Positions 7,258 through 30,004 of a stretch of 32,000 bases of DNA are shown here, in pieces; the first letter of the stretch is position 1, and every line of letters begins with the position of its first letter. This stretch comes from Trichlorobacter lovleyi SZ (lineage in GTDB: Bacteria > Desulfobacterota > Desulfuromonadia > Geobacterales > Pseudopelobacteraceae). The stretch covers positions 1,200,001 to 1,232,000 of the forward strand of contig NC_010814.1 in assembly GCF_000020385.1 (NCBI RefSeq), in the 5' to 3' direction. The notes under the pieces are model-generated. The model was given only the letters and a program-made list of their open reading frames with translations. It made no database searches and was not told the origin of the DNA. Both the position numbers and the translations under genes were made by a program.

Positions 7258-7269
7258 ATTTGTTTTGAT

Positions 7270-13676: not shown

Positions 13677-13680
13677 AACG

Positions 13681-14642: not shown

Positions 14643-15587
14643 TTACTTTTTTGGTTCTTCCTTCTTGACCGGTTTAGGGGCATCCCACAACCAGATCTGA
14701 CCAGCCATTGGCAGGGCTACCATATTTGCCCACTCTACCCAGCCACCTTCATATACTTTTACGTTTTTGTAGCCGAGCATATACTTGAGGATAACATAGG
14801 TGTGTGCCGAGCGGTCACCACTGTGGCAGTAGGTATAGATCGTACGATCTCCGTTGACATCTTTTGCCTCATACAGCTTCTTGATGTCTTCAAGTGACTT
14901 GAACAGCTGGCTGTCTTTTTCATTGGCATCGGAACTGGTCACCAGTACCGCTTTGGGTAGATAACCGCCACGGATGGCACGGATATTCTGGGCCTTGAAC
15001 TCGTTTTCCGGCCGGGAATCCAGCAGCAGTACCTCAGGCTTTGCCCCTTGGGCCACATCACGGTAGATGTCACTCCAGGTGACAGTCATGTCAGTTTTTG
15101 TCTTAGCAATCTTGTACTTGCTTTTTTTGATTTTAGTTACATCATCCGTTACCTTATTACCGAGTTTCTTCCAGTTGACAATTCCGCCGTTCAGCAGCTT
15201 CAGCTTGGCTGGGTCGTGGCCAAACATCTCCAACAGAAACAGCAAGCGGGTAGCAAACAGACTTGACTTGTCGTCGTAGGCAACAATCACGGAACCGTTT
15301 TCGATTCCCGACTCAGAGAGAAATTTCTCAAACTGCAACTTGGTTGGGTAGGCGGTGGCTGGATAACGATCAGTGTTGGAGAGATCAAGATAGCGTTTGA
15401 CCTGGATAGCTCCGGGGATATGCTCCTTGTCAAAGGCATTCGGCTTGTCAGCCACATCCATGATCTTGACGTTCTTGTTGTTCATGTTCTTCTTCAGCCA
15501 GTCGGCATCAACCAGGCTGATTGCCAGTGCTGCGCTGTTCATGCTGAACAGAGTGATCAGGGCCAGTGCAAAGATTTTCAATTTCAT
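14643..15587 (-). CDS. Periplasmic tandem-rhodanese sulfurtransferase
   Basis: The start was chosen at MKLKIFALALITLFSMNSAALA (signal peptide) after an AGGAGG RBS. The longer track ORF would overlap the psrC-like gene. There are two rhodanese domains. The first is inactive (AYDDKSS). The second has the active-site loop YCHSGDRS. Confidence 0.85.
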   Translation of the reverse strand: MKLKIFALALITLFSMNSAALAISLVDADWLKKNMNNKNVKIMDVADKPNAFDKEHIPGAIQVKRYLDLSNTDRYPATAYPTKLQFEKFLSESGIENGSVIVAYDDKSSLFATRLLFLLEMFGHDPAKLKLLNGGIVNWKKLGNKVTDDVTKIKKSKYKIAKTKTDMTVTWSDIYRDVAQGAKPEVLLLDSRPENEFKAQNIRAIRGGYLPKAVLVTSSDANEKDSQLFKSLEDIKKLYEAKDVNGDRTIYTYCHSGDRSAHTYVILKYMLGYKNVKVYEGGWVEWANMVALPMAGQIWLWDAPKPVKKEEPKK

Positions 15588-15637
15588 TATGTTACCTCCT
15601 TCAGGATAGTGCCCGATGGGCAGTGAAAAGTAGATTG

Positions 15638-16609
15638 TCAGACCAGTTTGCTGATCTGTCCGGCGTAGACAAAGGTTAGACGGATCACCAGACTTCCCAG
15701 CAAGACCAGTCCGGCGCTCAGATTCATCTTGAGGATGTCGCTGCTGCAAAGTGTTTCATGGCACTCCTTGATCTCGGCCAGTTTCATCACCAATGCCAGA
15801 GGGAAGATGACGCCGATAAACAAGAGTGAGGCGGTATACCAGAGATATTCATGGTTTAAGCTGAAGAACGGCATGATCGAAAGCCGCTGTGATTCAGAGG
15901 AAACATACTGACCGTAGAAAAATAGCGGGATGATGATCATCTCGGCAATGATCAGGCCGATGTCGACCTTTGTGTAAAACAGTTTTACACACTGATCCTT
16001 GGCCAGCACGATCATCAGGGCTGCCCCTGCTGACATGGCTGAACAGAGGAACAGCATCGGCAGGATGGCGGTGTTCCAGAGTGGGCGGGCCACAAAGGCG
16101 CTCAAGAGCACACCGGTGTAGATGCCGATGAAGACCCCCATTGCAGCATTGGCCAGTGCAAGATACTGCATGCGTGGCTTTACCCAGGTGGCCAGATCAT
16201 CCATGAACGGCAGGCGGTACAACCACTCTCTGCGCTGTTCCGGCAGGGTGCCGTAGGCGAACAACAGGCTGATCGGGGTGAACAGCAGCAGCCCCCAGGA
16301 ACCCCAGGACATGGGGGAGAGCGGCTGTATCGTCAGGTAGAACCAGAACACATTCAGCTTGCGGTCCAGGTCCAGAAAGATAAAGAACATACCGATCCCC
16401 AAAATGACCGGTACCAGCCAGGGGGCTACCATGAAGACGGTTTCACCCGCCGGAATACGGTCTTCCTTTTTCTGAAGGTGCATCAGTGAGCTCATCACCG
16501 CCAGGCCTGCAGAAAGGCCGCCCAGAAACAGGTAGAGCGAAACACGCCAGTCCCAGATATGCAGGACCGGATTGGTCATGGCGTTGGCGCCGGTAATAGT
16601 CAGTTCCAT
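15638..16609 (-). CDS. NrfD/PsrC-family integral membrane quinol-interacting subunit
   Basis: 323 aa with about 8-9 TM helices and an NrfD-type N-terminus (WDWRVSLYLFLGGLSAG). A GGGGGAG RBS lies upstream. The gene directly follows the ferredoxin subunit. Confidence 0.85.
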   Translation of the reverse strand: MELTITGANAMTNPVLHIWDWRVSLYLFLGGLSAGLAVMSSLMHLQKKEDRIPAGETVFMVAPWLVPVILGIGMFFIFLDLDRKLNVFWFYLTIQPLSPMSWGSWGLLLFTPISLLFAYGTLPEQRREWLYRLPFMDDLATWVKPRMQYLALANAAMGVFIGIYTGVLLSAFVARPLWNTAILPMLFLCSAMSAGAALMIVLAKDQCVKLFYTKVDIGLIIAEMIIIPLFFYGQYVSSESQRLSIMPFFSLNHEYLWYTASLLFIGVIFPLALVMKLAEIKECHETLCSSDILKMNLSAGLVLLGSLVIRLTFVYAGQISKLV

Positions 16610-16621
16610 AGATGCTCCCCC

Positions 16622-17179
16622 CTATTCCGTGCCAAACCGGCGGATGTAATAGACCCGTGGCTCGGTGCCGGCGCTTTTCATCGGCAGTTCGGCATGGTGC
16701 CCCTTCAGGGCCAGCCGCACCGGGCTTTTCGGGTCATTCAGATCACCAAAGATGCGGGACTTGCCGATACAGGTGGCTACACAGGCCGGCTCCTTGCCTT
16801 CCTTGATCCGGTGGTCGCAGAAGGTGCATTTGTCGGCAAACCCCTTGTTGTGGTCAATGTAGCGGGCGTCATAGGGGCAGGCAGCCACACAGGCCTTGCA
16901 ACCCACACAGCGTTTCTTGTCCAGCAGTACCAGGCCGCTCAGGCGGCTTTTGTAGGAGGCGCGGGTAGGGCAGTTGTAGACACAGGGCGGGTTGTCACAG
17001 TGGTTGCACAGCTCGGAGCGCAATTCAGTGCGCAGATTGGGAAACTGTCCTTCAGTTTTCTCCAGCACCCGTGTGCGAAACTGCTCGGGCGGTACGTTGT
17101 TCTCCGCCTTGCAGGCGACAATGCAGGCCATGCAGCCGATGCAGCGCCGTTGATCGATTACCATTGCATACTTCGGCAT
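16622..17179 (-). CDS. Four-cluster 4Fe-4S ferredoxin subunit (PsrB/PhsB/DmsB type)
   Basis: 185 aa containing CIGCMACIVAC, CNHCDNPPCVYNCP, CVGCKACVAACP and CTFC...C...C motifs. Confidence 0.9.
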   Translation of the reverse strand: MPKYAMVIDQRRCIGCMACIVACKAENNVPPEQFRTRVLEKTEGQFPNLRTELRSELCNHCDNPPCVYNCPTRASYKSRLSGLVLLDKKRCVGCKACVAACPYDARYIDHNKGFADKCTFCDHRIKEGKEPACVATCIGKSRIFGDLNDPKSPVRLALKGHHAELPMKSAGTEPRVYYIRRFGTE

Positions 17180-17180
17180 A

Positions 17181-19373
17181 TCAGGCCCCCTTTACCAGTT
17201 TTACAAAGGTACAACGCATTCCGGTGCCGCCGCAGATCGGATCAACCGGATAGCTGCTGATCAGCTGCTGATCATCCGCCCCTCTGCGGAAAGCCTTTGT
17301 CAGACCTTTTGATTGTTGGCCAAAGCCATGCACCATGTAGACACAGTCTTCTCTAATCCGTTCCGTCACCTTCAGGCGTACGCGGTTTGAGGTGATCCCT
17401 TCCTGATTCTGCAGCGCCACATACTGGCCATCAGTCAGCCCCATTTTTCTGGCCTGTACGCTGCTCAGCCAGAGTTCATTTTCCTTGTACAGCTCGTTCA
17501 AGGCAGGGTTGTTTACCGTACGACTGAAGGTGTGTACCGCACTGCGACCATACAGCAGACGATAGAACCCTTGTGGCGGCTCTTCATTCTTCTCGTAGGC
17601 GGGTATCGGTTCAAACCCCAGCTCTTCAAGTTCCTTGCTGTACAACTCAATCTTGCCTGACTTGGTTTTGAAGACCGGCTGATTGTCGGCGGTGATGAAC
17701 GGCTTTGCCGTGTCAGGGAAGGAAATGACCCCCTTCTGTTTCAGTTCGTCATAGTCGATGTTGTAGGTCAGGCAGAGTTCATTCAGACGATCTTCGAAAT
17801 TTTCCCAGGGGAAGTAGTCTTCCAACCCCAGTTTTTTGGACAGCTCCTTGGCGATCCACCAGGCCGGTTTTGAGTCGTACATCGGCGCTACTGCAGGCTG
17901 GCGGATACTTGCGGACAGAGCGCGTCCCTTGCCGATGATCAGGCCGTCATGCCGCTCCAGGTAGGTGCATTCAGGCAGCACCACATCGGCGTAGAGCGAG
18001 GTGTCAGAGGGGATAACATCAACCACCACCAGCAGATCCAGCTTGCTGATCGCCTCGATGGTCTCTTTCTGGCCCGGCATGGCAGCCAGCAGATTGGTAC
18101 CGGTAACCATCCAGGCCTTGACCGGGTACGGTTCGCCGATACTGGTGGCCTCACGGATGGCGTTGGTGACCCCTTCGGCGCCGCCTAACGGGAAGCCCCC
18201 TTTTTTCAGGGTGGGACGGTTTGAGGCGGGAAAGCTGGGTGGTGGCACTGCCGGGAACGATCCCCTGGTGGCCAGGTAGGCACCCCCTTCTCGTCCCCAG
18301 GTGCCGAGGATGGCGCCCAGAATGGCAATTGCCCGTGAACGTTGTACATCCTTGCCGTCCCAGGTAACGTGGCGGCCGGGATGGATGCAGACTGCCGGGC
18401 GGTGCAGGCCCATCTCGCGGGCAGTGGCCATGATCTGTGCTGCCGGGATATCGGTCTCTTTTTCCGCCCACTCCGGTGTGTACTGCTGTACTGCCGCTGC
18501 AAGCTTATCAAAGCCGTGTGTGTATTTGGCAACGTACTCCCGGTCGTACCAGCCTTCACGGATGATGATATTGATCCAGGCCAGGATCAGGGCCATATCA
18601 CTGGCCGGTTTGATCGGCAGCCAGTGGTGTGCTTTGCCCGCAGCTACCGAAAAGCGGGGATCAACCACGATGATCTTTGCGCCGTTGCCGATCGCATCGG
18701 TAAACTCCTGCACCTGTGAGTTGTGCATGTTCTCGCCCAGGTGAGAGCCGATCAGCACCACCACCTTGCTGTTGGCCATGTCCAATCGTTCAGGTGAACC
18801 GATGTCGTCACCGTAGGTCAGCTCATACCCCACTACCCGTGGCCCACGGCACTGGGCAAAGGATGGCATGGCAAAGTTATTGCTGCCAAACCCCTGTAAC
18901 AGCGGCATGAAATGCTCGGTGGGGGAACCGTGGGTAAACAGGGCCAGTGATTCCGGACCATGCTCTTCCTTGATTTTTTTCAGCTTGTCGGCAATGTGGG
19001 TCAGTGCCTCGTCCCAGCTTGCCTTGCGAAACTGCCCCTCACCCCTTTTGCCGGTTCTGATCAGGGGATGTTTGAGCCGATCCGGGTCGTACAGCAGGCC
19101 GATACCTCCGTTGCCCCGTCCACAGAGCTTGCCTTTAGCGGTTGCAGAGAGCGGATTTCCCTCCAGCTTGACCACCCGGCCACCCACGACGGTGGCAATG
19201 GCGCCGCATTTCCAGAAACACATCTCGCAATAGGTGGTGATTTTTTCTGTCTTGGCCAGCCCCTTTTCACCGGCCCAGAGCAGAAACTGGTCAGGCAGAT
19301 AGGTGGCGGCAATTGCGCCGGCGGTACAGATTCCTGAAGTTTTAAGGAAGGAGCGTCTGCTCATAATCGGCAT
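17181..19373 (-). CDS. Mo-bisPGD oxidoreductase catalytic subunit of the polysulfide / thiosulfate / selenite (Psr/Phs/Srr) reductase type, exported by the Tat pathway
   Basis: 730 aa. A Tat signal (SRRSFLKTSGICTAGAIAA) and a CEMCFWKC-X-C [4Fe-4S] motif are present. The gene order A-B-C plus rhodanese supports the family. Substrate cannot be assigned from the sequence alone. Confidence 0.8.
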   Translation of the reverse strand: MPIMSRRSFLKTSGICTAGAIAATYLPDQFLLWAGEKGLAKTEKITTYCEMCFWKCGAIATVVGGRVVKLEGNPLSATAKGKLCGRGNGGIGLLYDPDRLKHPLIRTGKRGEGQFRKASWDEALTHIADKLKKIKEEHGPESLALFTHGSPTEHFMPLLQGFGSNNFAMPSFAQCRGPRVVGYELTYGDDIGSPERLDMANSKVVVLIGSHLGENMHNSQVQEFTDAIGNGAKIIVVDPRFSVAAGKAHHWLPIKPASDMALILAWINIIIREGWYDREYVAKYTHGFDKLAAAVQQYTPEWAEKETDIPAAQIMATAREMGLHRPAVCIHPGRHVTWDGKDVQRSRAIAILGAILGTWGREGGAYLATRGSFPAVPPPSFPASNRPTLKKGGFPLGGAEGVTNAIREATSIGEPYPVKAWMVTGTNLLAAMPGQKETIEAISKLDLLVVVDVIPSDTSLYADVVLPECTYLERHDGLIIGKGRALSASIRQPAVAPMYDSKPAWWIAKELSKKLGLEDYFPWENFEDRLNELCLTYNIDYDELKQKGVISFPDTAKPFITADNQPVFKTKSGKIELYSKELEELGFEPIPAYEKNEEPPQGFYRLLYGRSAVHTFSRTVNNPALNELYKENELWLSSVQARKMGLTDGQYVALQNQEGITSNRVRLKVTERIREDCVYMVHGFGQQSKGLTKAFRRGADDQQLISSYPVDPICGGTGMRCTFVKLVKGA

Positions 19374-19396
19374 GAAGTAAATCTCCTTTCGGGTAC

Positions 19397-19430
19397 AAAA
19401 AACGCCCTCCGATTAAGAATCGGAAGGCGC
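19397..19430 (-). terminator. Strong intrinsic terminator between the small -GC protein gene and the psrA-like gene
   Basis: On the minus strand, GCGCCTTCCGATT-ctt-AATCGGAGGGCG is followed by TTTTTT. This is a stem of about 12 bp with one G-T pair. It ends about 15 nt before the psrA-like RBS. Confidence 0.7.
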
Positions 19431-19440
19431 CAGGTTGCTA

Positions 19441-19767
19441 TTAGCAGCCAGCAACAACCTCAGTGCCGGTACCCTTGGGAGGCTCGCTCACCGACAGGGT
19501 CATGTTCTGTTTGATCTTGGCGGCCTTGGCCTTGCTGAATTTCAACGTTACCTGCTTTCCCTGCACATCTACCACCGTGGGCATACCGCCGGCTGCAGAC
19601 AGCACTGATCCCTTCTTTACCCAGGTTGGTCCGCCTTTGGCCACTTCCAGGGTGACCCGTTCGCCGTCATTTTTGGTTACCTTGCCGGAAAAGGAAGCGG
19701 CCATGGCGCCACTGCTCAAGGCCAGTGTCGTGAGTGCAACTGCAACCAATGTGATCATCTTTTTCAT
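19441..19767 (-). CDS. Small secreted protein ending in -AGC, a paralog of the 26769-27050 product
   Basis: 108 aa with an AGGAGG RBS and a signal peptide (MKKMITLVAVALTTLALSSGAMA). The mature part aligns with the ExtJ-like protein (GKV..V.DG..V.LE.....KKG......G....V.V.G..V.LK.S.A.A..IK). Both end in Gly-Cys followed by the stop codon. Confidence 0.7.
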   Translation of the reverse strand: MKKMITLVAVALTTLALSSGAMAASFSGKVTKNDGERVTLEVAKGGPTWVKKGSVLSAAGGMPTVVDVQGKQVTLKFSKAKAAKIKQNMTLSVSEPPKGTGTEVVAGC

Positions 19768-19821
19768 AAGTTTTTCCTCCTGATAGTGGGATGTTTACGT
19801 GAAATCGATGGAGGTGACTTA

Positions 19822-19837
19822 AGCAAGTGCGGTGCCA
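19822..19837 (-). promoter_or_regulatory. Sigma54 (-24/-12) promoter
   Basis: The minus strand reads TGGCAC-CGCAC-TTGCT, a perfect match to TGGCAC-N5-TTGCW. It lies 54 nt upstream of the ATG at 19767 and directly downstream of a sigma54-dependent regulator gene. Confidence 0.8.
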
Positions 19838-19946
19838 ATAGGTAACACACTTAAATTATTGAAATGTGGCGGCATATGGTTGTTTCAAAATGAAACGATC
19901 GTGCAGATTGAATGAAATGAGAGGGGGTTAATGGGGGTGGGCTGAC

Positions 19947-21290
19947 TTACAATCCGTACTGTTTTACTTTTCTCCAAAGTGAGGCAAGACTGATGCCAAG
20001 CAGTTTTGAGGCCTTGCCCCGATGCCCTGCGGTGGCTTTGAGTACGCGGATGATATGCCGTCGTTCCACTTCAGCCATTGGAAGCAGTTCCTGGTCGGAT
20101 GAGGATGAAAGCGGGGTGTCGGATACAGAAAAGCGCGGCAGGTACTGCGGCTGCAGTTCGTTTCCATCAGCCATAATCACAGCCCGTTCAATGATGTTTT
20201 CCAGTTCACGCACATTGCCGGGCCAATGATAGTTGCGCAGACTCTGCAACGCCTCTGGAGAGATGCTGGACAGCTGCACTCCGTATTGCCTGGCGTAGCG
20301 GGTCAGAAAGTAGTGGGCCAACAGGCCGATGTCACCATTGCGTTCACGAAGCGGCGGCAGTGTAATCGTGACCACGTTCAGGCGATAAAACAGATCACTG
20401 CGAAATCTCCCTGTCTGGACCTCCTTTTCAAGCGTTGTGTTGCTGGCGGCGATCACCCGCAGGTCAACCGAGCGCGGTTCGTGGTCACCAACCCTGATGA
20501 AGCTCCCTTCCTGCAAAACCCTCAGTAACTTGACCTGAAAGGCTGGAGAGGTGGTGTTGATTTCATCCAGAAACAGGGTGCCATGGTCTGCAGATTCCAG
20601 CAGCCCTTTCTTGTCTTTGTCAGCACCGGTAAAGGCACCGCGGGCATGGCCAAACAGCTCTGATTCCAGCAGTGTTTCAGGCAGGGCGCCACAGTTGATC
20701 GGCAGGAAACGCTGGTCACGACGCTGGCTCAGGCGGTGAATCATTCGTGCCGCCAACTCCTTGCCGGTTCCGGTTTCCCCCTGAATAAGGACCGTGGTAT
20801 CAAAAGGTGCGATCCTGGTGATCAGCGCCTTCAGTGTAGTCATCTGTTTGCTGGCGCCCAGAAGCTCGTCGGCTTGGCATCCGGCTACCTGCTGGCGTAG
20901 CTGGCGATTTTCATCCTGTAGACGCAACCGTACCAGTGCCCGTTGCACCACCAGCAACAGTTGATCCGGCTCAAACGGTTTCTGCAGATAGTCGTAGGCG
21001 CCGTTTTTAATTGCCTGTACTGCCGACTCAATTGAACCGTATCCGGTAATCACCACCACCAGGCAGTCAGGGTTAGCCTGAAGGGCCAGGTTCAGCAGTT
21101 CCATGCCGTCTATCTGTGGCATCATCAAATCAGTGATGATCAGATCTGTTGTTTGGCGTAACACCATTTCTGCAGCCTCAGCGCCGTCACTGCAGAGGAC
21201 TGCATTGATACCCTCACTTGCCAGAGTATCCCTGATCAGTTGCCGCATCCTCAGGTCATCATCGACAATGAGAATAAGTGGATCAGGCAT
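19947..21290 (-). CDS. Sigma54-dependent response regulator (NtrC family)
   Basis: 447 aa. The receiver reads DDD...DLMMPQIDG. Walker A is GETGTGKEL. The GAFTGA motif is canonical and ESELFGH is present. The C-terminal HTH reads [19 protein letters not shown]. Confidence 0.9.
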
Positions 21291-22938
21291 CGACCGACTC
21301 CTTGCAGGGCAGGATTACAACAAAGGTCGTGCCTCTGCTGTCTGACTTGACAATATCGATATTGCCGCCGTTCTCATTCACAATTCCTGCGCAGATGGAA
21401 AGTCCCAGCCCGGTTCCTTCCCCAAACGGCTTGGTGGTAAAAAATGGGTCAAAGATGCGGCTTCTTACTTCATCCGGGATGCCGGGGCCGCTATCCTGCA
21501 CCTCAAGTCTGACCCCTTCTGGCTGACGTCTGACAATAATACGGATCTCTCCCTGACTACCAATCGCCTGCAGGGCATTCATCACCAGATTCAGCACTAC
21601 CTGTTCAATTCCCCATGGGTCGGCGCAGACCTTCGGGATCAGCTCAAGGTCAGTGGTCAGGATGATCTTGCGTTTGCTGAGTTCAGTGGTAAGCAGGCAA
21701 AGGGCATTTTTAATGACACTATTCAGGTCACATGCGTCCAGGCGACACTGGGTTGGTTGGGCATGGCGGGAGAAGTTGAGCAAGGCCTGGATGATGGTGC
21801 CGCTCTTTTTGGCCTGCTCCGCAATCACTGCCAGCTGTTCACGCTGCTGTTGGGTCAGGTTCTCCTGTTTCAGTAACAGCCGGGCGTATCCCAGGATGCT
21901 TCCCAATGGGGTGTTCAGTTCATGGGCAACACCGGCAGAGAGCTGCCCGATTGCCGACAACTTTTCAGTGCGGTGATACAGTTCCTGCTGTTTCTTCTCT
22001 TCGGTAATGTTTCTGAAGGTGATCACACGGCCGATCCGTTTCATTTCATTATCCAGCAAGGGGGCCATGTTGAGTGATAGGTGGCATTCGTTTGCACGAG
22101 CCTGCGTGCAGGTTAGCTCAAGTCCTTGAATGATTTCCATCGGATCAGTCAGCTCAACGCTTATGACAGGAAAGAGGTCCGTAAGAGCCAGGCCAATCAG
22201 CTCCGCTTCATCACGTTGCAGGATCATGGTTGCAGAACGGTTAACCGAAAGGATCCGGTCATTGGTACCAGCCACCAGTAATCCCTCTGACAAGCTTTCC
22301 AGTACTGTTGCCAGCTTTGACTTCTCTGTCAGGTAAAAATCACGTTGCTCTTTTTCCGATTGTTCTGCCATCTTTTTTTCTGTGATATCAAGTGATACCT
22401 CGATGACGGTGGTAACCTTGTTGTTTTCATCACGTGCAAACGGCGTGGTGGCAACCTGAAAATACTTGCCTCGCTTGACAATCTCCCGCGCAACGGCCGG
22501 TTGACCGGTGGCAAAGGTGTATTTGGCCGGACAATGCTCCACCGGTGCATTGCGGTTGCCGTAGGCATCAAAGCAATAACAGCCTGTAACATCTTCAGCT
22601 TCCGGCGCCAGCAGCAGGGTGCGTTGTTTTTCGTTGCAGCGCAGGATACGGAAGTTGCGGTCGATGATTGAAATTCCTACCCCGGTGGCATCAAAGATCG
22701 CCTGCAGTTCATCCTTGGCTACCTGTAATTCATTGATGGTTTCATTGAGATACTCCAGTATGTGGCCGAATGACTGGGCAATCGTGCCGATCGGATCAAG
22801 CTCGATCAGAGCATGATCGTCCAGCTCTTCCTCCTGCAGCGGCTCGGTGCCCATAACTCCCAGCAGTTGGTTGGTCTTTTCCCTGATGTAGCGAACATAG
22901 GCAAGACAGTTTTCCTGTTGCTTGGGGCATCCGCTCAT
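21283..22938 (-). CDS. Cytoplasmic PAS-PAS histidine kinase
   Basis: 551 aa with no TM segment. There are two PAS-like regions, the first carrying a GCYCF...HCP cysteine cluster. The H-box is GVAHELNTPLG and the HATPase motifs are DSGPGI / GTGLGLSIC. Its start overlaps the TusA-like stop (ATGA) and its end overlaps the regulator start. Confidence 0.9.
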   Translation of the reverse strand: MSGCPKQQENCLAYVRYIREKTNQLLGVMGTEPLQEEELDDHALIELDPIGTIAQSFGHILEYLNETINELQVAKDELQAIFDATGVGISIIDRNFRILRCNEKQRTLLLAPEAEDVTGCYCFDAYGNRNAPVEHCPAKYTFATGQPAVAREIVKRGKYFQVATTPFARDENNKVTTVIEVSLDITEKKMAEQSEKEQRDFYLTEKSKLATVLESLSEGLLVAGTNDRILSVNRSATMILQRDEAELIGLALTDLFPVISVELTDPMEIIQGLELTCTQARANECHLSLNMAPLLDNEMKRIGRVITFRNITEEKKQQELYHRTEKLSAIGQLSAGVAHELNTPLGSILGYARLLLKQENLTQQQREQLAVIAEQAKKSGTIIQALLNFSRHAQPTQCRLDACDLNSVIKNALCLLTTELSKRKIILTTDLELIPKVCADPWGIEQVVLNLVMNALQAIGSQGEIRIIVRRQPEGVRLEVQDSGPGIPDEVRSRIFDPFFTTKPFGEGTGLGLSICAGIVNENGGNIDIVKSDSRGTTFVVILPCKESVDA

Positions 22939-23195
22939 GATTTACCGCCGATACTGATCTCGTACCAGGTTTCCACCTTGCGGACTTCGACAGCCAGCCC
23001 CATCTTTTGAGCAGAAGCAGGAACCGTACGGGTAGTGTCACGATGATCGGTACGCACCAACAGCCGTGCGGTATCATTCCTCAGGCGTTCCCGATATTGG
23101 TTGATCTGCTTGAGTACTACCAACAGGCAGGCTGGGCAGACCTGGCCGAGGATATTGAGTTCTATTGTTTCAACTGAGCGCTCATCATTGCTCAT
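22935..23195 (-). CDS. TusA/YedF-family sulfur(selenium)-carrier-like protein with a CPAC active-site variant
   Basis: 86 aa, starting at MSNDERS after an AGGAGG RBS. LNILGQVCPACLLVVLKQ aligns with TusA LDALGLRCPEPVMMVRK. The C-terminus (WYEISIGG) resembles TusA (YRYLIRKG). Confidence 0.7.
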   Translation of the reverse strand: MSNDERSVETIELNILGQVCPACLLVVLKQINQYRERLRNDTARLLVRTDHRDTTRTVPASAQKMGLAVEVRKVETWYEISIGGKS

Positions 23196-24024
23196 CTGTT
23201 TTACCTCCTGAATGTTTGACGCTGACAGCTGTCGGGTGGGCAAGCCGGAACCCAAGGCCACTGAAACGCCCGTTGGGAGCAAACCAGTAGCGAATGGATG
23301 CGCGGATGCATTTGGGTTCGCAATCCCAGCAGCCACCCCGGACGGCCTTTTCAGAGGATGTAGTGGGGCCTTGAGGATTCATCCTCGGGCTTTTGCTATA
23401 ATAGCTCGTATCAAACCAGTCCTGCACCCATTCCCACACATTGCCGCTCATATCATAGATGCCGAGTCCATTAGGCTTTTTCTGTCCAACTGGATGTGGT
23501 CTGCCATCGGAATTGTCATGGTGCCAGGCCAGAACATCAATGTCGTTACCTCCACAGAACTTCTCCTGTTTACCACCGCTGCGACAGGCGTATTCCCATT
23601 CAGCCTCGCTGGGGAGACGGAACTGTAGTCCGGTTTGTCTGTTCAGGCGTTGGATAAACTGTTGAACCTCATTCCAGCTGACCTGCTCAACCGGGCAGCT
23701 GTCGCCGCAATCCCTGAAGTTGGATGGCCTATTGCCCATGAACTGTTTCCATTGCCCCTGCGTGACCTCGTATTTGGCAATCATAAAGTCTGATACACAG
23801 ACCTCATGAACCGGCTTCTCGTCGCCAGCGCTTTCAAGAATGAATTCACCCATCTGAAAGCAGCCCCCTTTTACCGGGACAAGTTCGATGTCGCTGCGTT
23901 GTCTCAGCTCATCAGGCACCAACAGTGCATCATGAGCATCACAGATCACTGGCAACAGCAGTATGGTCAACCAGGTGAGGGCTGAAAGGGTGTATAGATG
24001 CTTTTTAATCGAGGGAGTACCCAT
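23185..24024 (-). CDS. Secreted FGE-sulfatase (SUMF1/EgtB/PvdO) domain protein
   Basis: The start was chosen at MGTPSIKKHLYTLSALTWLTILLLPVI (signal-like) after a GGAG RBS. Family motifs are present: YEVTQGQW, RLPSEAEWEYACR, GNVWEWVQDW and RGG.W. The longer track ORF would overlap the yedE-like gene. Confidence 0.85.
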   Translation of the reverse strand: MGTPSIKKHLYTLSALTWLTILLLPVICDAHDALLVPDELRQRSDIELVPVKGGCFQMGEFILESAGDEKPVHEVCVSDFMIAKYEVTQGQWKQFMGNRPSNFRDCGDSCPVEQVSWNEVQQFIQRLNRQTGLQFRLPSEAEWEYACRSGGKQEKFCGGNDIDVLAWHHDNSDGRPHPVGQKKPNGLGIYDMSGNVWEWVQDWFDTSYYSKSPRMNPQGPTTSSEKAVRGGCWDCEPKCIRASIRYWFAPNGRFSGLGFRLAHPTAVSVKHSGGKTDEQ

Positions 24025-24068
24025 GCAGGTCTGTCTCCTGGGACAGCAAAGGAAGAAGACTGTCCTGT

Positions 24069-25175
24069 TTAGCCGCTGTCTTTTGTTTGAGTAATCACCA
24101 GTGGTAGTATCTGTGCGCCGTGCCATGCCCCAAGCAGCATACTCATGACAAACAGCAGTGCCTCAATTGATAAAAGCGGCAGGCCTCCCAGCAGAAATTT
24201 GATGTTGCAGCCATTGGCCAGTCGAGCACCTAGTGCGATCAGAATTCCTCCAGTGAAGGCAGTCAGTCCCTGACGCCACGGGGGTAGTCCATATACCCTG
24301 AACTCTTTCAGAAAAAGTGAGGTAAGCAGTGCTCCGCCCAAAATGCCGGCCATAAAGGGCAACTCGGTCAATAGGGTAGGATCAGACATTGTTCCGGTTG
24401 GGGATGTTGTGGTCAATCCAGTCTGCTGAAGCAGTTGTTCCAAGTGCAAGACATGTGCTGAAAAGAGTTGTGACTCAAGCCATAGTCCGATGCGGAGGTA
24501 GGCTGTTGAGATACCCAGAGGCCAGCCGTTTATCAGGTAGGCCGATAGATTGAGCAGGGCAAGTCCGATGGCAATCTTCCAGGGCTGCAGGTATCCATTG
24601 GCTGCCGCAACTATCTGTAAAAGCCCGCCACGATACCAGCGCAGGGCGAAGAAAAATGTTAGCAGTATCACTATAATGTTGATTGTTTCAGCAGTAAGAG
24701 GCCAATGCTGGATTAGAAGCTTATTTTCGCTTGCACCTCCAGTTTGGAGTAGCTCTTTGAACAACGGCTGCAGTTCGGCATAGAACACACTACCTGTAAC
24801 GATGCCGACAAAGGCGACACCGTGGGAAAGGTTGCCACTCCCCATCTTGTACAGTGTGCTTATCACACAGCCGCCAGCAAGAACCATTCCGATGCCAAAC
24901 AACCACCCACCTGTCATAGAAGCGATGGAAGGCAACCCAAAGGTGGGTGGAGGTGTTGCTGATACTAAGCCGATATAACGAGCAAGGGTGAATAGTGACA
25001 GGGTTAGTCCCACAGCCAGCAGCAAGGGGCGCAAGAGGGTGCGATCCTGAAATAAAAATTGATCACGTAAAATGCCGGCAATGCAGAAATCCCCACGATA
25101 GAGCATGTTCCCCAGTGCCAAGCCAATGACCAGGTTGAAGCCGATAGTAACCCATGGGGAAAGAGTGATCGTCAT
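24069..25175 (-). CDS. YeeE/YedE-family membrane protein (a putative thiosulfate or selenium-compound transporter)
   Basis: 368 aa and polytopic. The family's Cys-containing motifs are repeated: GDFCIAG, GGCVISTLYK and ANGCNIKF. Confidence 0.8.
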   Translation of the reverse strand: MTITLSPWVTIGFNLVIGLALGNMLYRGDFCIAGILRDQFLFQDRTLLRPLLLAVGLTLSLFTLARYIGLVSATPPPTFGLPSIASMTGGWLFGIGMVLAGGCVISTLYKMGSGNLSHGVAFVGIVTGSVFYAELQPLFKELLQTGGASENKLLIQHWPLTAETINIIVILLTFFFALRWYRGGLLQIVAAANGYLQPWKIAIGLALLNLSAYLINGWPLGISTAYLRIGLWLESQLFSAHVLHLEQLLQQTGLTTTSPTGTMSDPTLLTELPFMAGILGGALLTSLFLKEFRVYGLPPWRQGLTAFTGGILIALGARLANGCNIKFLLGGLPLLSIEALLFVMSMLLGAWHGAQILPLVITQTKDSG

Positions 25176-25270
25176 CGCTATCCGTTTCTAGTCTGCTTTT
25201 GATAAGTGTTTTTATAAGTGTTGCAAGTATAACTGCTGTTACAGTGCAACGCAACATGGCCATTGAGCAT

Positions 25271-25299
25271 AAAAAAAGCCGGCGGTTTGAGCCGCCGGC
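25271..25299 (-). terminator. Intrinsic terminator after the cytochrome gene
   Basis: On the minus strand, GCCGGCGG-ctcaaa-CCGCCGGC is followed by TTTTTTT, about 50 nt after the stop at 25351. Confidence 0.75.
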
Positions 25300-25350
25300 A
25301 CCACATGAAGGAGGGATAGGTGAGTATCCCTGTGTTGCTTGTTTTGCCGG

Positions 25351-26691
25351 TTATTTTCCGGTAGTACTGATTTTTACGGTCTTTTTGAACTCTTTCCAGA
25401 GGAACGGATCATCATCCATGGTGCCGAACGGCAGATACCAGAGCCTGACTTCCAGATCCAGGGTGTCGCTGCTGATGCTGCTTACCTTCTTGCCATCCTT
25501 CTCCTCTGTCTTGACCGGGAAGAAGATGTCATGGGTTGTGGTGATCGTCCTCAACGGCGGCAGGCTGGTGTCTTCCAGCATACCGCTCTTTTCGTAAGGA
25601 CCACGTCCCATCCGGTCGCCTTTACCCAGTTGCTGAGGAATCGGCATGAATATACGTTCTGCGTTGAATACTTCCTTGCCACTCTTGTCTTTTGCTTTTA
25701 CCGACAGAACCAGTCGGTTGGGGGTCGGTCAGCCATCGGGTATGCCGTGACCGGCCTTGTTGGTCAGCTCAATCCGTACCGCTGCCTTGGGACGGATAGT
25801 CGTGTTATCCCGCCAGTAGACCGAGTTGGTTTCCACATGCATCTCAACCGCCTTTTGAGCCATCTCCTTGGAGCGGTAACTCTGCATGTTATGGCCCAGC
25901 TTGCTCTCACGCATATGGCACTGCTGGCAGCTCTTGTTGCCCCCTTCCGGTATATAGGCCATCAGGTAGCTGGCATAGCCGGTTGCACACTGGGTCGGGT
26001 TTTCCTGATCAAAGTTGGGGCCCTGTCCGTGACACTGGCCACACATGATCGATTCAGACATGATCTGCCCTTTGGCCATTTTGGTGAACTTGCCATCCAT
26101 ATGCTCGCCTGACTTGCTGCCGTAGACCGTATCCTTTTTGGGGTAGCCTTCAGACCACTTGTGGGTAATGGCATTACGGTTGTGGCAGATCAGGCAGTTA
26201 ATATTAAGTGAGGAAAGGGTCTTCTCAAGTTTTTCTGCCTTGTCGGTATCTTCCTTTTTAATGGCGGCATCCCAATCCCAGAGCGTGGTCACGATTTCCT
26301 GAGCAACCTTGTCGGTTGCATCAGCCAGTTGGGGCAGGTGACACTTGGTACAGCCCTGCAGGTGTTCAACCTTGACATCCTTGGGTGACTTGACACCGGA
26401 GGCGGGCCAATCCATTGCGCCGTTGATGATAGCGGTCCTGAAGGTGGCTGCAGTACGTCCTGTGCCAAAGATAGAGCGGGCGTGGATCGATTTTGCCCAT
26501 TCATCATGGGCCTGCTGATGGCAGCCGATGCAGGAACTGGAGTCATAGCGTGCCACCAGTTCGGCAATACTGTTGGCCTTGGGCTGCGAAGCAAGGGTGG
26601 CGTCGCGGCCAACACCGACAGGAGCGGCAAGCGCAAAGGTTACCCCCGCCAGCAGCACAATAGCTGCCAGTGATAATATTTTTCGTATCAT
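25351..26691 (-). CDS. extKL: Periplasmic pentaheme c-type cytochrome with an in-frame UGA at codon 321, a probable selenoprotein (ExtKL-like)
   Basis: The start is at MIRKILSLAAIVLLAG (signal peptide) after an AAGAGGA RBS. Five CXXCH motifs are present (CIGCH, CTKCH, CLICH, CGQCH, CQQCH). The track splits the gene into 25729-26730 and 25351-25647, but I checked that the frame is identical. No other stop occurs across ...NKAGHGIPDG-TGA-PTPNRLVLSVKAKDKSGKEVFNAERIFMPIPQQ... . A hairpin follows the TGA. Confidence 0.7.
25700..25731 (-). other. In-frame UGA plus a candidate bacterial SECIS hairpin
   Basis: The minus strand reads UGA, then 10 nt, then the stem ACCGAC / GUCGGU (25700-25705 pairing with 25713-25718) with the loop UGGUUCU. 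The loop begins 17 nt after the UGA and has G at its second position. Confidence 0.5.
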
Positions 26692-26725
26692 GGGTGAAGT
26701 TCCTCTTGTTAAAGGAATGGCGGAG

Positions 26726-26758
26726 GCCATGAGGGGGGCATAAACTCCCCCTCATGGC
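26726..26758 (-). other. Very stable intercistronic hairpin (12-bp GC-rich stem) with no T-tract
   Basis: GCCATGAGGGGG-9 nt loop-CCCCCTCATGGC. It starts 10 nt after the TGA stop of the ExtJ-like gene and ends about 35 nt before the cytochrome ATG. Confidence 0.6.
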
Positions 26759-26768
26759 TCGATGGTGA

Positions 26769-27050
26769 TCAGCAACCCTGCATAGAGGCCATTTTGTCAA
26801 CCTTGACGGTGTCGCCAGCCTTCAGGTCGGCGGCGTTGGAGGCCTTGATGGTCAGCTTGGTGCCATCCACGGCTGTTACCTTGCCGGCCTTGCCGTTCAG
26901 CTTGACCCCGGCGCCTTTTTTGAACTTGGCATCAGCGCCCATTTCAACCACAGCCTGGCCATCGGCAACGGAAACCACCTTGCCCTCGGCAGCAAAGGCA
27001 GCAGTGGCGGCAAAGAGGGACAGAGTCAGCATAACGAGAATCTTCTTCAT
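26769..27050 (-). CDS. Small periplasmic protein ending in -QGC (ExtJ-like), a paralog of the 19441-19767 product
   Basis: 93 aa, starting at MKKILVMLTLSLFAATAAFA after an AAGGAG RBS. The sequence has a Lys/Gly/Val-rich beta-type composition. The C-terminus is Gly-Cys followed by TGA. Confidence 0.7.
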   Translation of the reverse strand: MKKILVMLTLSLFAATAAFAAEGKVVSVADGQAVVEMGADAKFKKGAGVKLNGKAGKVTAVDGTKLTIKASNAADLKAGDTVKVDKMASMQGC

Positions 27051-27078
27051 GGTATAACTCTCCTTTGTGGTCCTCAAG

Positions 27079-27414
27079 TTAGTCGGCTATCGGTTTTGCA
27101 TTCCACATAAAACGCGTATTTGACTTTTTGTCAGAAATCTTGCTGTCTGGCTTCTTGGTCTCTTTGACCGTTTCTGCAGCAGCCTTGGGCGCCTCCTGGT
27201 GGGGAGCCGGTTGCTGTACAACCGGTTGCTGCTGTGGTGTTGCAGCGGCTGTGCCACCAACAAACTGCCAGGAGTTAATGGTGGTGCTCGGCTCATCCAG
27301 CGAAACGGTCTGAGTCTTGCCGGAGCGGTAGGTGATCACCAGGGTGTCGGCAAAGCAAATGTTGGCACAGACCAGGGTGAGTAGTGCAGCGGTAATAAGA
27401 TTCCACTTTTTCAT
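27079..27414 (-). CDS. Small secreted protein with a Pro/Gln/Ala-rich linker and a Lys-rich tail
   Basis: 111 aa with an AAGGAG RBS and a signal peptide (MKKWNLITAALLTLVCANICFA). I recognise no family. Confidence 0.6.
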   Translation of the reverse strand: MKKWNLITAALLTLVCANICFADTLVITYRSGKTQTVSLDEPSTTINSWQFVGGTAAATPQQQPVVQQPAPHQEAPKAAAETVKETKKPDSKISDKKSNTRFMWNAKPIAD

Positions 27415-27473
27415 AGGTGTTACTCCTTGGCTGTTGGTTGGCTGCCGAGGTGCCCCGGCAGCCGTGAGGTGCC

Positions 27474-28943
27474 CTAGAATACCACCTGCAGCATCATACG
27501 GAAAGTGTCGAACGAGTTGACGTCTTTAACGTAGCCTGAGGCAACACCGGGCGTACTGGCACCCGGTACCACAAACGCCATTTTCTTGGAGAAGTCTGTT
27601 TTCAGATATTCAGCGGTCAGACGGACCCGCTGGTCGCCGGTGATGTAGTAGTTGAGGCCACCACCGATCTGCTCAATCCGTTGACCGTCAACCCCCAACA
27701 GGTGGGCAAAACGCCAGTTTTCATACAGAGCGTAGGGTTGCAGCTTGCCCATACCGCCGATCTTGAACGGCAGGATATGGGCAACCTTGGTGTAGAAACC
27801 TTCCTTCTGGCCGTTCATGCCGGAAACCACTGCCAGTTTATCACCGGATGAGGCTGTCAGATAGGCATCTTCAAAATCTACTTTCAGATATTGTGCGGTA
27901 ATCGTGGGGACACCAAAAGCGGTCGGGTATTCAAACATGCCGTCAACCGCAATTGCACTGTAATCAACCGTACCTTTGCTGGTGTTGGCCATTGTTGTTA
28001 CTTTGGTTACCGAGGATGTCGTTGCAGGTCCTGGGGCCGTGGTGGAGGAAGTGCCGTCTGACAGCCAGTAGACGTTCTGGGTATTTTTGTAGGCTGCCTG
28101 AGGCTGAAACGCGCCGCCGACGCCGATGTTGAGGATTTTTTTCTCTCCGAAATAGGTGCCTTGATAACCGGAACCGCCTTCTGATTCGAGGAAGTCAAAG
28201 GTCAGGCGCGCGACATATTCAAGATTGGTTTTTGGGGCTGTACTGGTAGTGGCAGGAGCCCCCATGATTTTGTTCGGGGCGCCGTTCGGATAGTTGGGGG
28301 CATAGGGAATAGCCGTTTGGCTGGTCCCTTCTCGTCCCTGAAAGATACCGGCAAAATAGGTCAGTCGGTCATTAAAGAAACGTCCCACTGCCACGCCACC
28401 CAGGTCACGGCTGAATTTGGCCGGTGAGGATCCGTAAGCTGAGTAGACAAACATGGAGCGGTCCTGTGACAGCGGTGCGAAACAGTCATCCAGATTGGCA
28501 CGGCTTAAAGGAATCTTGGTCAGACCGACCTTCAGGTTGATATGCTCGTTGAAATTTGCAATGGCGTAGGCGTCAATGATCCGTATATCACGGTCGTTCC
28601 AGTCGGTATCCTGCTGTGAAAGCGTGTACATGAACGGGTTTTTGGTGGTGCCGGTGTTACCGCAGGTCTGGAACTTGTAGCCCCAGGTCTCATCCAGCAT
28701 GCCGGTCAGACCCAGGCGGTTACGCATGAAGTGCAGGTCAGTCCTGTTTTCCTTGCCGTCGTTTCCACCACCTAAACTGGTATTTTCCAGATAAAACTGC
28801 CCCTTCAGATCAATCTGTACAAAACCGCCATCATCGCCAAACTCGATTCGCGGTCCTGCCTGGGCAGCCCCCGCGCACAGCATGGTGGCTGCCAGTGCAA
28901 CAGCGCAATACTGCAGATTCCGCTTGCTGCTTTTCTTGCTCAT
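27474..28943 (-). CDS. extI: Outer-membrane beta-barrel porin (ExtI-like / OprO-P-like)
   Basis: 489 aa with a signal peptide ending AQA. The sequence shows an alternating beta-strand pattern rich in Gly, Tyr and Thr. The C-terminus is ...RMMLQVVF, a terminal Phe typical of OMPs. It is the first gene of the porin / small proteins / cytochrome operon. Confidence 0.75.
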   Translation of the reverse strand: MSKKSSKRNLQYCAVALAATMLCAGAAQAGPRIEFGDDGGFVQIDLKGQFYLENTSLGGGNDGKENRTDLHFMRNRLGLTGMLDETWGYKFQTCGNTGTTKNPFMYTLSQQDTDWNDRDIRIIDAYAIANFNEHINLKVGLTKIPLSRANLDDCFAPLSQDRSMFVYSAYGSSPAKFSRDLGGVAVGRFFNDRLTYFAGIFQGREGTSQTAIPYAPNYPNGAPNKIMGAPATTSTAPKTNLEYVARLTFDFLESEGGSGYQGTYFGEKKILNIGVGGAFQPQAAYKNTQNVYWLSDGTSSTTAPGPATTSSVTKVTTMANTSKGTVDYSAIAVDGMFEYPTAFGVPTITAQYLKVDFEDAYLTASSGDKLAVVSGMNGQKEGFYTKVAHILPFKIGGMGKLQPYALYENWRFAHLLGVDGQRIEQIGGGLNYYITGDQRVRLTAEYLKTDFSKKMAFVVPGASTPGVASGYVKDVNSFDTFRMMLQVVF

Positions 28944-29110
28944 GGTTTCCTCCTTAGGGAAGTTGTTGCCCCCAGACCTGGCTCATTCCTTGTCCAGTGG
29001 CTATTGCAGACGATTTATATTGTCTATATCCGAACAGGCAGGTAGATTAAAAACGAATGATTCGCATAACCCTATGAGACGTATGCAGTTTTAAATATAT
29101 GGAGGTTTGC

Positions 29111-30004
29111 ATGGAGTTGGTCTACCTGCGGACGTTTGTGGAGTCGCTTGAGGCAGGAAGTTTCTCAAAAGCAGCTGATGCGCTGTGTGTTACCCAGTCT
29201 GCAGTCTCACGGAGAATCAAGTTTCTGGAGGATCAGTACGGGTATCCGCTGCTGGACCGGTCCGGTCCGGTATTGGTGGCGACTGAAGCGGGAAAAATTG
29301 TGCTGGATAAGGCCCGTCAGCTGTTAAGCATTGAAGATGAACTATTGAAAGGCCTGAAGGGGATTGGCAAACGGGATGGACTCTCCTTCTGCTGCACACC
29401 GGGCTTTGGTACCGCCTTTCTGCCCCGGGTTGTCAGAGAGCTGCTCCAGACCAGCAGTGAGATGCACAATATGCAGTTCTTTCTGGATATGCCGGATCTG
29501 GTGCTGGCCGGGGTTCAGGACGGCCGGTTTGACATCGGTCTGCTGGAACATTGCGAACAGTTTGATTTCAGTGAGCTGCAGGTGTTGCAACTACCTGATG
29601 ACGATGTCCTTTTTGTCAGTTCTCCTGCGCTTGATATACCTTCAGGTGAGGTGACTGTTGCTCAACTGGGACAACATACCCTGTTCTCCCGCCGGGCCGA
29701 GTGCTGTTCAACCAAATTCCTTTCCTTTAACCTGAAAAAGATCGGTCTGGATGAAACGGCATTTCCGTCAAGGGTTGTGTATGACGATCTGCACCAGATT
29801 ATTGCCTCCACCGTGGATGGTCTGGGGATTGCCTTTACTGCGCGTTCCCTGGTTGCTGAACAAATCGCCGCAGGAAAGCTACGCTCACACCAGGTACAAG
29901 GGTTCATGCATGCCCGGAGACGCTCGCTTGTATTCAGGCCCTGTTTTGTCAGCAATCCTCTGGCTGATCTGTTGATACAGGAAGTTCAACGCTGTTTTGA
30001 ATAG
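29111..30004 (+). CDS. LysR-family transcriptional regulator
   Basis: MELVYLRTFVESLEAGSFSKAADALCVTQSAVSRRIKFLEDQYG is a canonical LysR HTH. A GGAGG RBS lies 5 nt upstream. The gene is divergent from the porin operon. Confidence 0.9.
   Translation: MELVYLRTFVESLEAGSFSKAADALCVTQSAVSRRIKFLEDQYGYPLLDRSGPVLVATEAGKIVLDKARQLLSIEDELLKGLKGIGKRDGLSFCCTPGFGTAFLPRVVRELLQTSSEMHNMQFFLDMPDLVLAGVQDGRFDIGLLEHCEQFDFSELQVLQLPDDDVLFVSSPALDIPSGEVTVAQLGQHTLFSRRAECCSTKFLSFNLKKIGLDETAFPSRVVYDDLHQIIASTVDGLGIAFTARSLVAEQIAAGKLRSHQVQGFMHARRRSLVFRPCFVSNPLADLLIQEVQRCFE

Follow-up and report, generated by a model that had tools for sequence, protein, structure and literature searches.

What does a bacterium respire with a gene cluster that encodes a selenocysteine cytochrome and, a few kilobases away, a molybdenum reductase? 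This question is raised by a stretch of 32,000 nt from Trichlorobacter lovleyi SZ (contig NC_010814.1, positions 1,200,001 to 1,232,000 of the forward strand), subsequently referred to as the window. According to Pfam and NCBIfam scans, 14 tightly packed minus-strand genes span positions 14643-28943. We find that this locus joins a known type of polysulfide reductase (Psr) to the ext/MccSep system, itself already known, in a variant confined to one lineage. It is probably, though by no means certainly, a composite locus for the respiration of elemental sulfur (S0) and polysulfide that joins two unrelated polysulfide-type reductases. The reduction of selenite is likely a side activity and not the purpose of the locus. 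An earlier note on the same DNA had described a selenium (or sulfur) respiration and trafficking locus, and all of the parts it listed were found where it had placed them, within 14643-28943 of the minus strand. They are given here in the order in which the minus-strand genes are read, together with the neighboring regulator gene and the signals between the genes.

29099-30004, plus strand: LysR-family regulator (Pfam HTH_1 and LysR_substrate)
27474-28943, minus strand: extI, outer-membrane porin (NF040900 porin_ExtI, 282 bits, cutoff 150; Pfam Porin_O_P)
27079-27414, minus strand: orf111, small secreted protein of 111 aa (no family match)
26769-27050, minus strand: extJ1, small secreted beta-barrel protein with a Gly-Cys end (NF040942, 62.4 bits, cutoff 52.5)
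25351-26730, minus strand: mccSep (extKL), periplasmic pentahaem selenoprotein (NF040886, 604 bits, cutoff 250)
25694-25733, minus strand: hairpin resembling a selenocysteine insertion sequence (SECIS), starting at the UGA (-14.1 kcal/mol, z = -2.0)
25278-25299, minus strand: intrinsic terminator of the extI-mccSep operon (8-bp all-GC stem followed by T7)
25226-25254, minus strand: putative sigma70-type promoter of the yeeE operon, TTGCGT-17-TATACT (read from the sequence)
24069-25175, minus strand: yeeE/yedE-family membrane transporter, putatively of a sulfur compound (Pfam Sulf_transp, 155 bits)
23185-24024, minus strand: secreted FGE-sulfatase-domain protein (Pfam FGE-sulfatase, 172 bits)
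22935-23195, minus strand: TusA-family protein with a CPAC motif (Pfam TusA, 41.5 bits, cutoff 28.6)
21283-22938, minus strand: soluble double-PAS histidine kinase (Pfam PAS_4, PAS_9, HisKA and HATPase_c)
19947-21290, minus strand: sigma54-dependent response regulator (receiver, AAA+ and Fis helix-turn-helix; Pfam)
19882-19896, minus strand: palindrome GTTTCATTTTGAAAC, candidate enhancer site for the regulator (sequence and conservation)
19822-19837, minus strand: sigma54 promoter TGGCACCGCACTTGCT (zero-mismatch match to the consensus)
19441-19767, minus strand: extJ2, ExtJ paralogue of 108 aa with a Gly-Cys end (NF040942, 62.8 bits, cutoff 52.5)
19401-19431, minus strand: hairpin with T-run, internal terminator or attenuator (14-bp stem)
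17181-19373, minus strand: psrA-type catalytic subunit of 730 aa with molybdenum bis(pyranopterin guanine dinucleotide) (Mo-bisPGD) and a twin-arginine translocation (TAT) signal (Pfam; 2VPW, 691 bits)
16622-17179, minus strand: psrB, four-cluster ferredoxin subunit (Pfam Fer4_11)
15638-16609, minus strand: psrC, NrfD-type membrane quinol subunit (Pfam NrfD, 120 bits)
14643-15587, minus strand: periplasmic tandem rhodanese (Pfam Rhodanese, two stretches)

The gene models of the earlier note kept their coordinates except for three starts, which were trimmed. These belong to the FGE gene (now 24024), the TusA gene (now 23195) and the rhodanese gene, where a 368-aa open reading frame (ORF) with a TTG start proved to be an artefact and the start was placed at the ATG at 15587.

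The two reductases of the locus

The cytochrome ORF, whose likely start is the ATG at 26691, contains an in-frame TGA (25729-25731) that is followed by 126 further in-frame codons. It encodes five CxxCH haem motifs (residues 67, 127, 179, 230 and 268), and its selenocysteine (Sec) site, GHGIPDG-TGA-PTPNR, fits the pattern GH(S/G)IPDGUPTPNR. The read-through product matches the multiheme cytochrome c selenoprotein MccSep (PDB 9WT8/9WT9) with 631 bits and 61% identity. The equivalents of R83, H122, C239 (the distal Cys ligand of haem 2), U325 and K372 are all aligned and identical. The SECIS-like hairpin is the same, letter by letter, in the related locus L084, although that locus is only ~90% identical overall. 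Judged by its sequence, the window cytochrome is MccSep (ExtKL). The link to an ext cluster that had been drawn before is borne out more generally, since the NCBIfam equivalogs for ExtI, ExtJ and ExtKL were all passed. It was also right that no rhodanese lies upstream of the porin: a divergent LysR gene is found there, and the sole rhodanese fails the ExtH model (90.7 bits, under the cutoff of 200).

In Geobacter sulfurreducens, MccSep is a periplasmic homotetrameric polysulfide reductase that is induced by S0 and essential for growth on it (PMC13510729, 2026). Its K0.5 is 0.99 mM for selenite versus 0.19 mM for polysulfide, its Vmax/K0.5 is sevenfold higher for polysulfide than for selenite, and it is inactive on thiosulfate, tetrathionate, sulfite, selenate and tellurate (PMC13510729). 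A statement on the genus Geobacter names S0 among the electron acceptors and cites Sung 2006, the paper describing G. lovleyi strain SZ (PMC4909783).

These properties bear on the proposal that we are looking at a dedicated locus for selenite/tellurite respiration and selenium trafficking. ExtI would import selenite, MccSep and an Srr-like enzyme would reduce it, and YedE/YedF-like proteins would move selenium. Such a function agrees with the impaired selenite and tellurite reduction of a G. sulfurreducens ExtI mutant (PMC5877670), with the reduction of selenite by MccSep in vitro (PMC13510729), with the NCBIfam family name 'selenite/tellurite reduction operon' and with the membership of Srr, which has rhodanese partners, in the same enzyme lineage as the molybdoenzyme. 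However, the K0.5 of MccSep is fivefold lower for polysulfide, and the enzyme is S0-induced and needed for growth on S0 (PMC13510729). The window YeeE reaches 98 bits on the YedE/FdhT model, which requires 350, and performs equally poorly on TsuA. The window operon has one NrfD gene only, whereas the srr operon has the extra genes srrD, srrE and srrF (PMC12949373). There are no sel genes within the window, and the partners of this Psr clade are widespread in sulfur-cycling taxa. A selenium-dedicated locus is decidedly unlikely on this evidence. Of the two alternatives in the earlier note, sulfur (as polysulfide) is the better supported, selenite being a roughly sevenfold less efficient substrate of MccSep (PMC13510729).

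The 730-aa subunit of the second reductase aligns end to end with the Thermus thermophilus polysulfide reductase (2VPW, 691 bits). C175 is aligned with the Mo-ligand Cys of the T. thermophilus enzyme, an Arg and a His nearby are conserved, and the Cys residues of the N-terminal 4Fe-4S motif (C49, C52, C56 and C84) are invariant. With its TAT signal, 4Fe-4S motif, Mo Cys ligand, four-cluster B subunit and NrfD-type C subunit, the enzyme displays all traits of the PsrA/PhsA/SrrA lineage. PsrA, PhsA and SrrA intermix in trees, and the substrate is unreadable from the sequence (PMC12949373, PMC7331816, PMC13047784); because of this, the phylogenetic placement proposed in the earlier note cannot decide between them. 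The rhodanese encoded at the end of the operon has the active-site loop CHSGDRS in its second domain and a Lys-rich tail without a terminal Cys.

Alternatively, the molybdoenzyme could be part of a thiosulfate system with a Phs-type reductase, YeeE/TusA as a TsuA/TsuB importer and the rhodanese as thiosulfate sulfurtransferase. The best NCBIfam match of the 730-aa subunit is indeed the PhsA equivalog (PRK15488), but its 541 bits fall under the cutoff of 694. YeeE/YeeD is a characterised thiosulfate uptake pair according to work cited in PMC13047784, but both TsuA models failed here. Some Psr enzymes reduce both substrates; MccSep, on the other hand, is inactive on thiosulfate, G. sulfurreducens does not respire it (PMC13510729), and ExtI, ExtJ and ExtMNOPQS are partners of a polysulfide enzyme. 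We therefore consider the thiosulfate system quite unlikely.

Units of the locus and their place in an ext cluster

Between the two reductases lies a module of transporter, FGE protein, TusA protein, kinase and regulator. YeeE passes the Pfam superfamily model only and stays below every equivalog cutoff (TsuA, 102 vs 400 and 67 vs 645; YedE/FdhT, 98 vs 350; TIGR04112, 45 vs 200). The selenium link that had been attached to it as a YedE is not supported by the YedE/FdhT models, and the TsuA models fail as well. TusA has the motif CPAC where the family usually has CPxP, and the same variant occurs in L084 and L125. The PAS kinase contains 14 Cys and no membrane segment, as judged from hydropathy and Cys count. 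The genes overlap by 11 nt (fge/tusA), 4 nt (tusA/kinase) and 8 nt (kinase/regulator), in line with the translational coupling to kinase and regulator suggested earlier. It is known that a YeeE-like transporter, SoxT1B, acts in signalling (PMC11582611).

An orthologous module is found in L125 (YeeE 58%, kinase 75% and regulator 72% identical, TusA with CPAC) beside an MccSep cluster that is 57% identical. The FGE protein is 100% identical to T. lovleyi P0241, as ExtJ1 is to T. lovleyi P0145, and its next-closest informative homologue, P0251 (62% identical), has an unrelated gene context. We rejected a conserved YeeE-FGE-TusA triad because of this unrelated context and because the L125 module has no FGE gene. 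The FGE gene is treated here as a putative lineage-specific insert in the yeeE-tusA module. In L125 (11429-20800) there is also a sigma54 site at 16043 (+) that faces a Cys-rich ORF with a TAT signal and two CxxCH motifs; beyond this ORF lie a rhodanese, a CcdA/DsbD-like protein, thioredoxins and an ArsP permease.

The signals between the genes divide the locus into three predicted transcription units: extI-orf111-extJ1-mccSep, yeeE-fge-tusA-kinase-regulator and extJ2-psrABC-rhodanese. The single regulon envisaged before is not supported; the signals indicate separate control, with a LysR gene at the first unit, a sigma70-like promoter at the second and sigma54 at the third only. The one perfect TGGCAC-N5-TTGCW site in the window (19822-19837) lies 55 nt upstream of extJ2. 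Sigma54 matches with one or two mismatches are at chance level (28 found, 26 expected), and none of these looser matches lies upstream of extI or yeeE. In L084, the counterpart of the promoter is TGGCATCAGCCTTGCT. The palindrome GTTTCATTTTGAAAC, ~45 nt upstream of the sigma54 site, falls within a block that is near-identical in this ~90% relative, while the remaining spacer has diverged. The mccSep terminator (25278-25299) is conserved in L084, and so is the putative yeeE promoter, which sits inside a GTTGCA...TGCAAC inverted repeat.

The hairpin between extJ2 and psrA is kept in L084 as a structure with a different stem sequence. Beside it there is too little space for psrA to have a promoter of its own, so that extJ2-psrABC-rhodanese is predicted to form a single operon under sigma54 control, with the hairpin as an attenuator inside it. 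That the structure has been retained with a different stem points to selection for unequal expression of ExtJ2 and PsrABC. The small secreted protein with a C-terminal Cys and a sigma54 promoter, described before as a unit of its own, was thus correctly seen, but it is an ExtJ paralogue in one operon with the molybdoenzyme. The LysR gene is divergent from extI, has the same divergent position in L084-L092 and also adjoins ext genes in Oryzomonas L003. Its product likely regulates the extI operon, as far as gene position can tell.

How the units came together can be read from related loci, including those of a PsrA-anchored scan of GTDB species genomes (80 loci, with MccSep looked for within 10 kb) and an MccSep-anchored scan of JGI metagenomes (52 loci). 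Three metagenome contigs (L088, L089 and L092) have 99.7-100% DNA identity to the window. The co-conservation of the units, which the earlier note had made a test of its proposal, is seen in L088/L089, at 99.7-99.9% DNA identity, and, at ~90%, in the sister lineage L084-L086/L102. This sister lineage has the full window order and then extMNOPQS after the rhodanese; L102 has the gene order of L084-L086 and an MccSep that is 94% identical to that of the window. In L103, extI-orf111-extJ-mccSep-extMNOPQS is found without the block (MccSep 88% and ExtJ1 94% identical). Because the block lies between mccSep and extM in L084/L102 and is absent from L103, the yeeE-to-rhodanese segment is an insertion into a canonical ext cluster. 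The downstream ext genes have not been replaced by it, as had been assumed: the sister lineage still has extMNOPQS, directly beyond the rhodanese, with the block separating extKL from extM. In the window, L004, L095 and L096, the rhodanese is followed by molybdenum cofactor (Moco) genes and an arsenate-respiration cluster. Homologues of orf111 occur in the same place in L003, L084, L103, L104, L106, L107 and L121. Many ext clusters have this gene in the gap from extI to extJ, although the published extHIJKL naming does not cover it.

Another reading is a mosaic without functional integration, in which the remnant of an ext cluster, a psr island of foreign origin and a cassette for transport and sensing have collected in a variable region next to arsenate-respiration and Moco genes. 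The units do have separate promoters and terminators, the adjacency of MccSep and Psr is confined to one lineage, and the contexts on the right and left vary among relatives (MOSC or extM after the rhodanese). Nevertheless, the order has been kept across ~10% DNA divergence, this Psr clade is accompanied by the same accessory families in several phyla, and an orthologous YeeE-TusA-kinase-regulator module independently adjoins MccSep in L125. A mere mosaic therefore seems unlikely.

Proposed alternative reductase modules and Gly-Cys tails

Psr loci from other lineages often carry the same accessories, with a rhodanese in 48 and YeeE in 33 of 82. Geomonas, Oryzomonas and Geobacteraceae metagenome-assembled genomes (MAGs) encode, in this order, an ExtJ-like protein, an ExtH-like rhodanese, PsrABC, a Lys-rich mini-protein and ExtMNOPQS; MccSep is absent, and PsrABC occupies its position. 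In Thermoanaerobaculia and Geothrix MAGs (Acidobacteriota), ExtI, ExtJ and PsrAB are adjacent, with ExtM/ExtO-type genes near, and a Thermoanaerobaculia locus shows the full order ExtI-ExtJ-PsrAB-ExtMNOPQS. Steroidobacteraceae, Ignavibacteriaceae and Vicinamibacteria MAGs have an operon PsrABC-YeeE-rhodanese, and the Marinifilum and Usitatibacteraceae loci have orders close to it. In combination, these patterns speak for a functional relation among the units and for Psr and MccSep as alternative reductases served by shared accessories.

Two of the Acidobacteriota loci, L054 (7973-18932) and L030 (9959-18962), have the order ExtI-ExtJ-PsrA-PsrB, which in L054 is directly followed by the full ExtMNOPQS set. 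No NrfD-type PsrC was detected in either locus. Here we see a hint that a Psr enzyme can receive its electrons from the bc-type module of Ext.

A recurrent feature of these accessories is their C-terminus. Both extJ1 and extJ2 of the window encode proteins that end in Gly-Cys. A profile search for ExtJ gave 2792 relatives, 120 of which were listed; among these listed matches, all 120 have the Gly-Cys end and 108 have no other Cys, although the profile itself contained this end and has a slight bias towards such matches. At MccSep loci the end is found in 24 of 24 ExtJ and 16 of 17 ExtH proteins. Beside Psr, 33 rhodaneses end in Gly-Cys and 6 in Gly-Cys-Ser, and Lys-rich mini-proteins of 68-90 aa have a Gly-Cys end as well. 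Near psr, 70 of 2047 same-strand ORFs (3.4%) end in this way versus 11 of 6713 elsewhere (0.16%).

Secreted proteins with a Gly-Cys (in a few cases Gly-Cys-Ser) end beside Psr or MccSep span many phyla, and some of the rhodaneses are single-domain proteins with Lys-rich tails. The pattern was seen in the window, L001, L003, L005, L007, L008, L022-L030, L034-L078 and L102-L148.

In an AlphaFold2 model, ExtJ2 folds into a beta-barrel (residues 25-94, with a predicted local distance difference test score mostly of 80-92) followed by a low-confidence, presumably disordered tail (residues 95-108). When this model was compared with the PDB by Foldseek, no match was significant; the hits were small beta-barrels of a generic kind, for example the crown domain of F1-ATPase, and a SoxY-like fold is not claimed for ExtJ for this reason. 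The sulfur carrier SoxY holds its substrate on a C-terminal GGCGG swinging arm. By analogy with it, we infer that the terminal Gly-Cys of ExtJ and ExtH may serve as a sulfane-sulfur carrier arm.

Literature searches for ExtJ, for a C-terminal cysteine together with polysulfide reductase and for psrABC together with rhodanese and YeeE returned no description of Gly-Cys tails. In the searchable literature, ExtJ is a small protein of unknown function and nothing more (PMC5877670). We tentatively propose, as a possibility that falls short of being probable, that the Gly-Cys ends of ExtJ, ExtH and many of the single-domain rhodaneses and Lys-rich mini-proteins found beside this Psr clade are undescribed, phylum-spanning periplasmic sulfane-sulfur carrier arms that load MccSep and PsrABC. 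The same proposal takes ext clusters to be modular, with an access module, a reductase and ExtMNOPQS as electron input.

A proposed route for polysulfide, the surroundings of the locus and known systems

The sequences show the gene identities, the catalytic residues, the operon signals and the synteny, while the substrate, the carrier role and the route of sensing are inferred. If the locus serves S0 and polysulfide respiration, its parts could act as follows. Polysulfide would form outside the cell from S0 and sulfide and be admitted to the periplasm by the ExtI porin. The cysteines of ExtJ1, ExtJ2 and the rhodanese would hold sulfane sulfur and pass it to both reductases. MccSep would reduce polysulfide to sulfide with electrons from periplasmic cytochromes encoded elsewhere, and PsrABC would do so with electrons from menaquinol. 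The second enzyme would have arrived with a mobile block that inserted after mccSep in an ancestral ext core, adding PsrABC, its own ExtJ paralogue and a periplasmic rhodanese. Owing to the hairpin behind its gene, ExtJ2 is probably produced in larger amounts than PsrABC. YeeE and TusA might bring sulfur species into the cytoplasm as a signal that is sensed by the soluble Cys-rich kinase, and the regulator would then switch on the sigma54 operon extJ2-psrABC-rhodanese.

Several points weigh against this reading. All three units have separate promoters. MccSep was absent within 10 kb of Psr in all 80 PsrA-anchored GTDB loci, and of the 52 MccSep-anchored loci only L102 contained Psr, which limits the adjacency to this lineage. 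The tally for adjacency is 0 of 82 Psr-anchored and 1 of about 28 MccSep-anchored loci. The extMNOPQS genes for cytochromes and a Rieske/cytochrome b, which directly follow extKL elsewhere, are absent from the window, and the electron donor of MccSep is not seen here. The FGE protein has no explained role in the locus. The rhodanese of the window does not share the Gly-Cys end, and the bias of the ExtJ profile mentioned above has to be kept in mind. Finally, it is possible that thiosulfate or selenite is the substrate of the molybdoenzyme, PsrA, PhsA and SrrA being inseparable by sequence.

On its right side, the LysR gene is followed by a 517-aa multihaem cytochrome with a Cytochrome_cB domain (30057-31610, plus strand). 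Just beyond the window end, L088 (1-6900) encodes an ArsP_1 permease, a ferredoxin, two thioredoxin-type proteins, DsbD, a DUF4405 protein and a rhodanese. This set, which is also found in L125, is possibly a periplasmic thiol-reducing system. On the left side, mobA, mobB, moaA and a MOSC-DUF2703 fusion (11546-14469, plus strand) are convergent to the psr operon, lie between two molybdoenzyme clusters and occupy the position that extMNOPQS has in the sister lineage. The second of these clusters (315-8755) is of the arsenate-respiration type. Its 856-aa ArrA-like subunit matches over the full length with 1018 bits, below the cutoff of 1600. Also encoded in the cluster are a sigma54 regulator, a sensor kinase, a phosphonate-type binding protein and an SBF/Acr3-like permease (plus strand). 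For G. lovleyi SZ, an arr operon is described in the literature (PMC2500031). An 885-aa GGDEF-EAL protein (8869-11526, plus strand) is encoded between this cluster and the Moco genes. Rfam and tRNA scans of the whole window gave no matches.

The 2026 study of MccSep left open how polysulfide passes the outer membrane and which partners transfer sulfur (PMC13510729). The locus and its relatives nominate candidates for both, namely ExtI, the Gly-Cys-tailed ExtJ and ExtH, the rhodanese and the YeeE-TusA-kinase sensor. They also present the molybdenum enzyme Psr and the selenium-haem enzyme MccSep as modules that could be interchanged or stacked in one accessory framework, and they open experiments on S0 respiration in Geobacter relatives and several other phyla. 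The database names that cast these genes as a selenite/tellurite system would need to be corrected. In our view, further study is most worthwhile for the Gly-Cys tails and for the idea that ext clusters are modular.

Among known systems, extHIJKLMNOPQS/MccSep of G. sulfurreducens (PDB 9WT8) has the same order of ExtI, ExtJ and MccSep, with a matching Sec codon, SECIS-like hairpin, five haems and catalytic residues. In contrast to it, the window has LysR in place of an upstream ExtH, the extra orf111 and an 11-kb block from yeeE to the rhodanese after mccSep, and extMNOPQS is not adjacent. With the Psr enzymes of T. thermophilus (2VPW) and Wolinella succinogenes, the second reductase shares three subunits, the TAT signal, the Cys-ligated Mo-bisPGD and the NrfD-type anchor, and its periplasmic rhodanese partner is comparable to Sud. 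It differs from them in its ExtJ paralogue, its sigma54 promoter and its setting in an ext cluster, and polysulfide is its predicted substrate. Srr of Bacillus selenitireducens belongs to the same PsrA/PhsA/SrrA lineage and has a rhodanese gene in its operon, whereas the window has one NrfD-type gene, one tandem rhodanese and a Gram-negative host with a porin and ExtJ.

The transporter resembles YeeE/YeeD (TsuA/TsuB) and SoxT1B in that a Sulf_transp protein with three conserved Cys-containing loops is encoded beside a TusA-family protein, and it has a link to a regulator like SoxT1B. Unlike these, it fails the TsuA and YedE equivalogs, has CPAC and not CPxP in the partner protein, and shares its operon with genes for a PAS kinase, a sigma54 activator and an inserted FGE protein. 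SoxY, finally, is a functional analogy only. Like ExtJ, it is small and periplasmic, has a flexible C-terminus with an invariant Cys and is encoded next to enzymes that act on the bound sulfur. The fold of ExtJ, however, is an unrelated small beta-barrel in the model, and its Cys is the very last residue.

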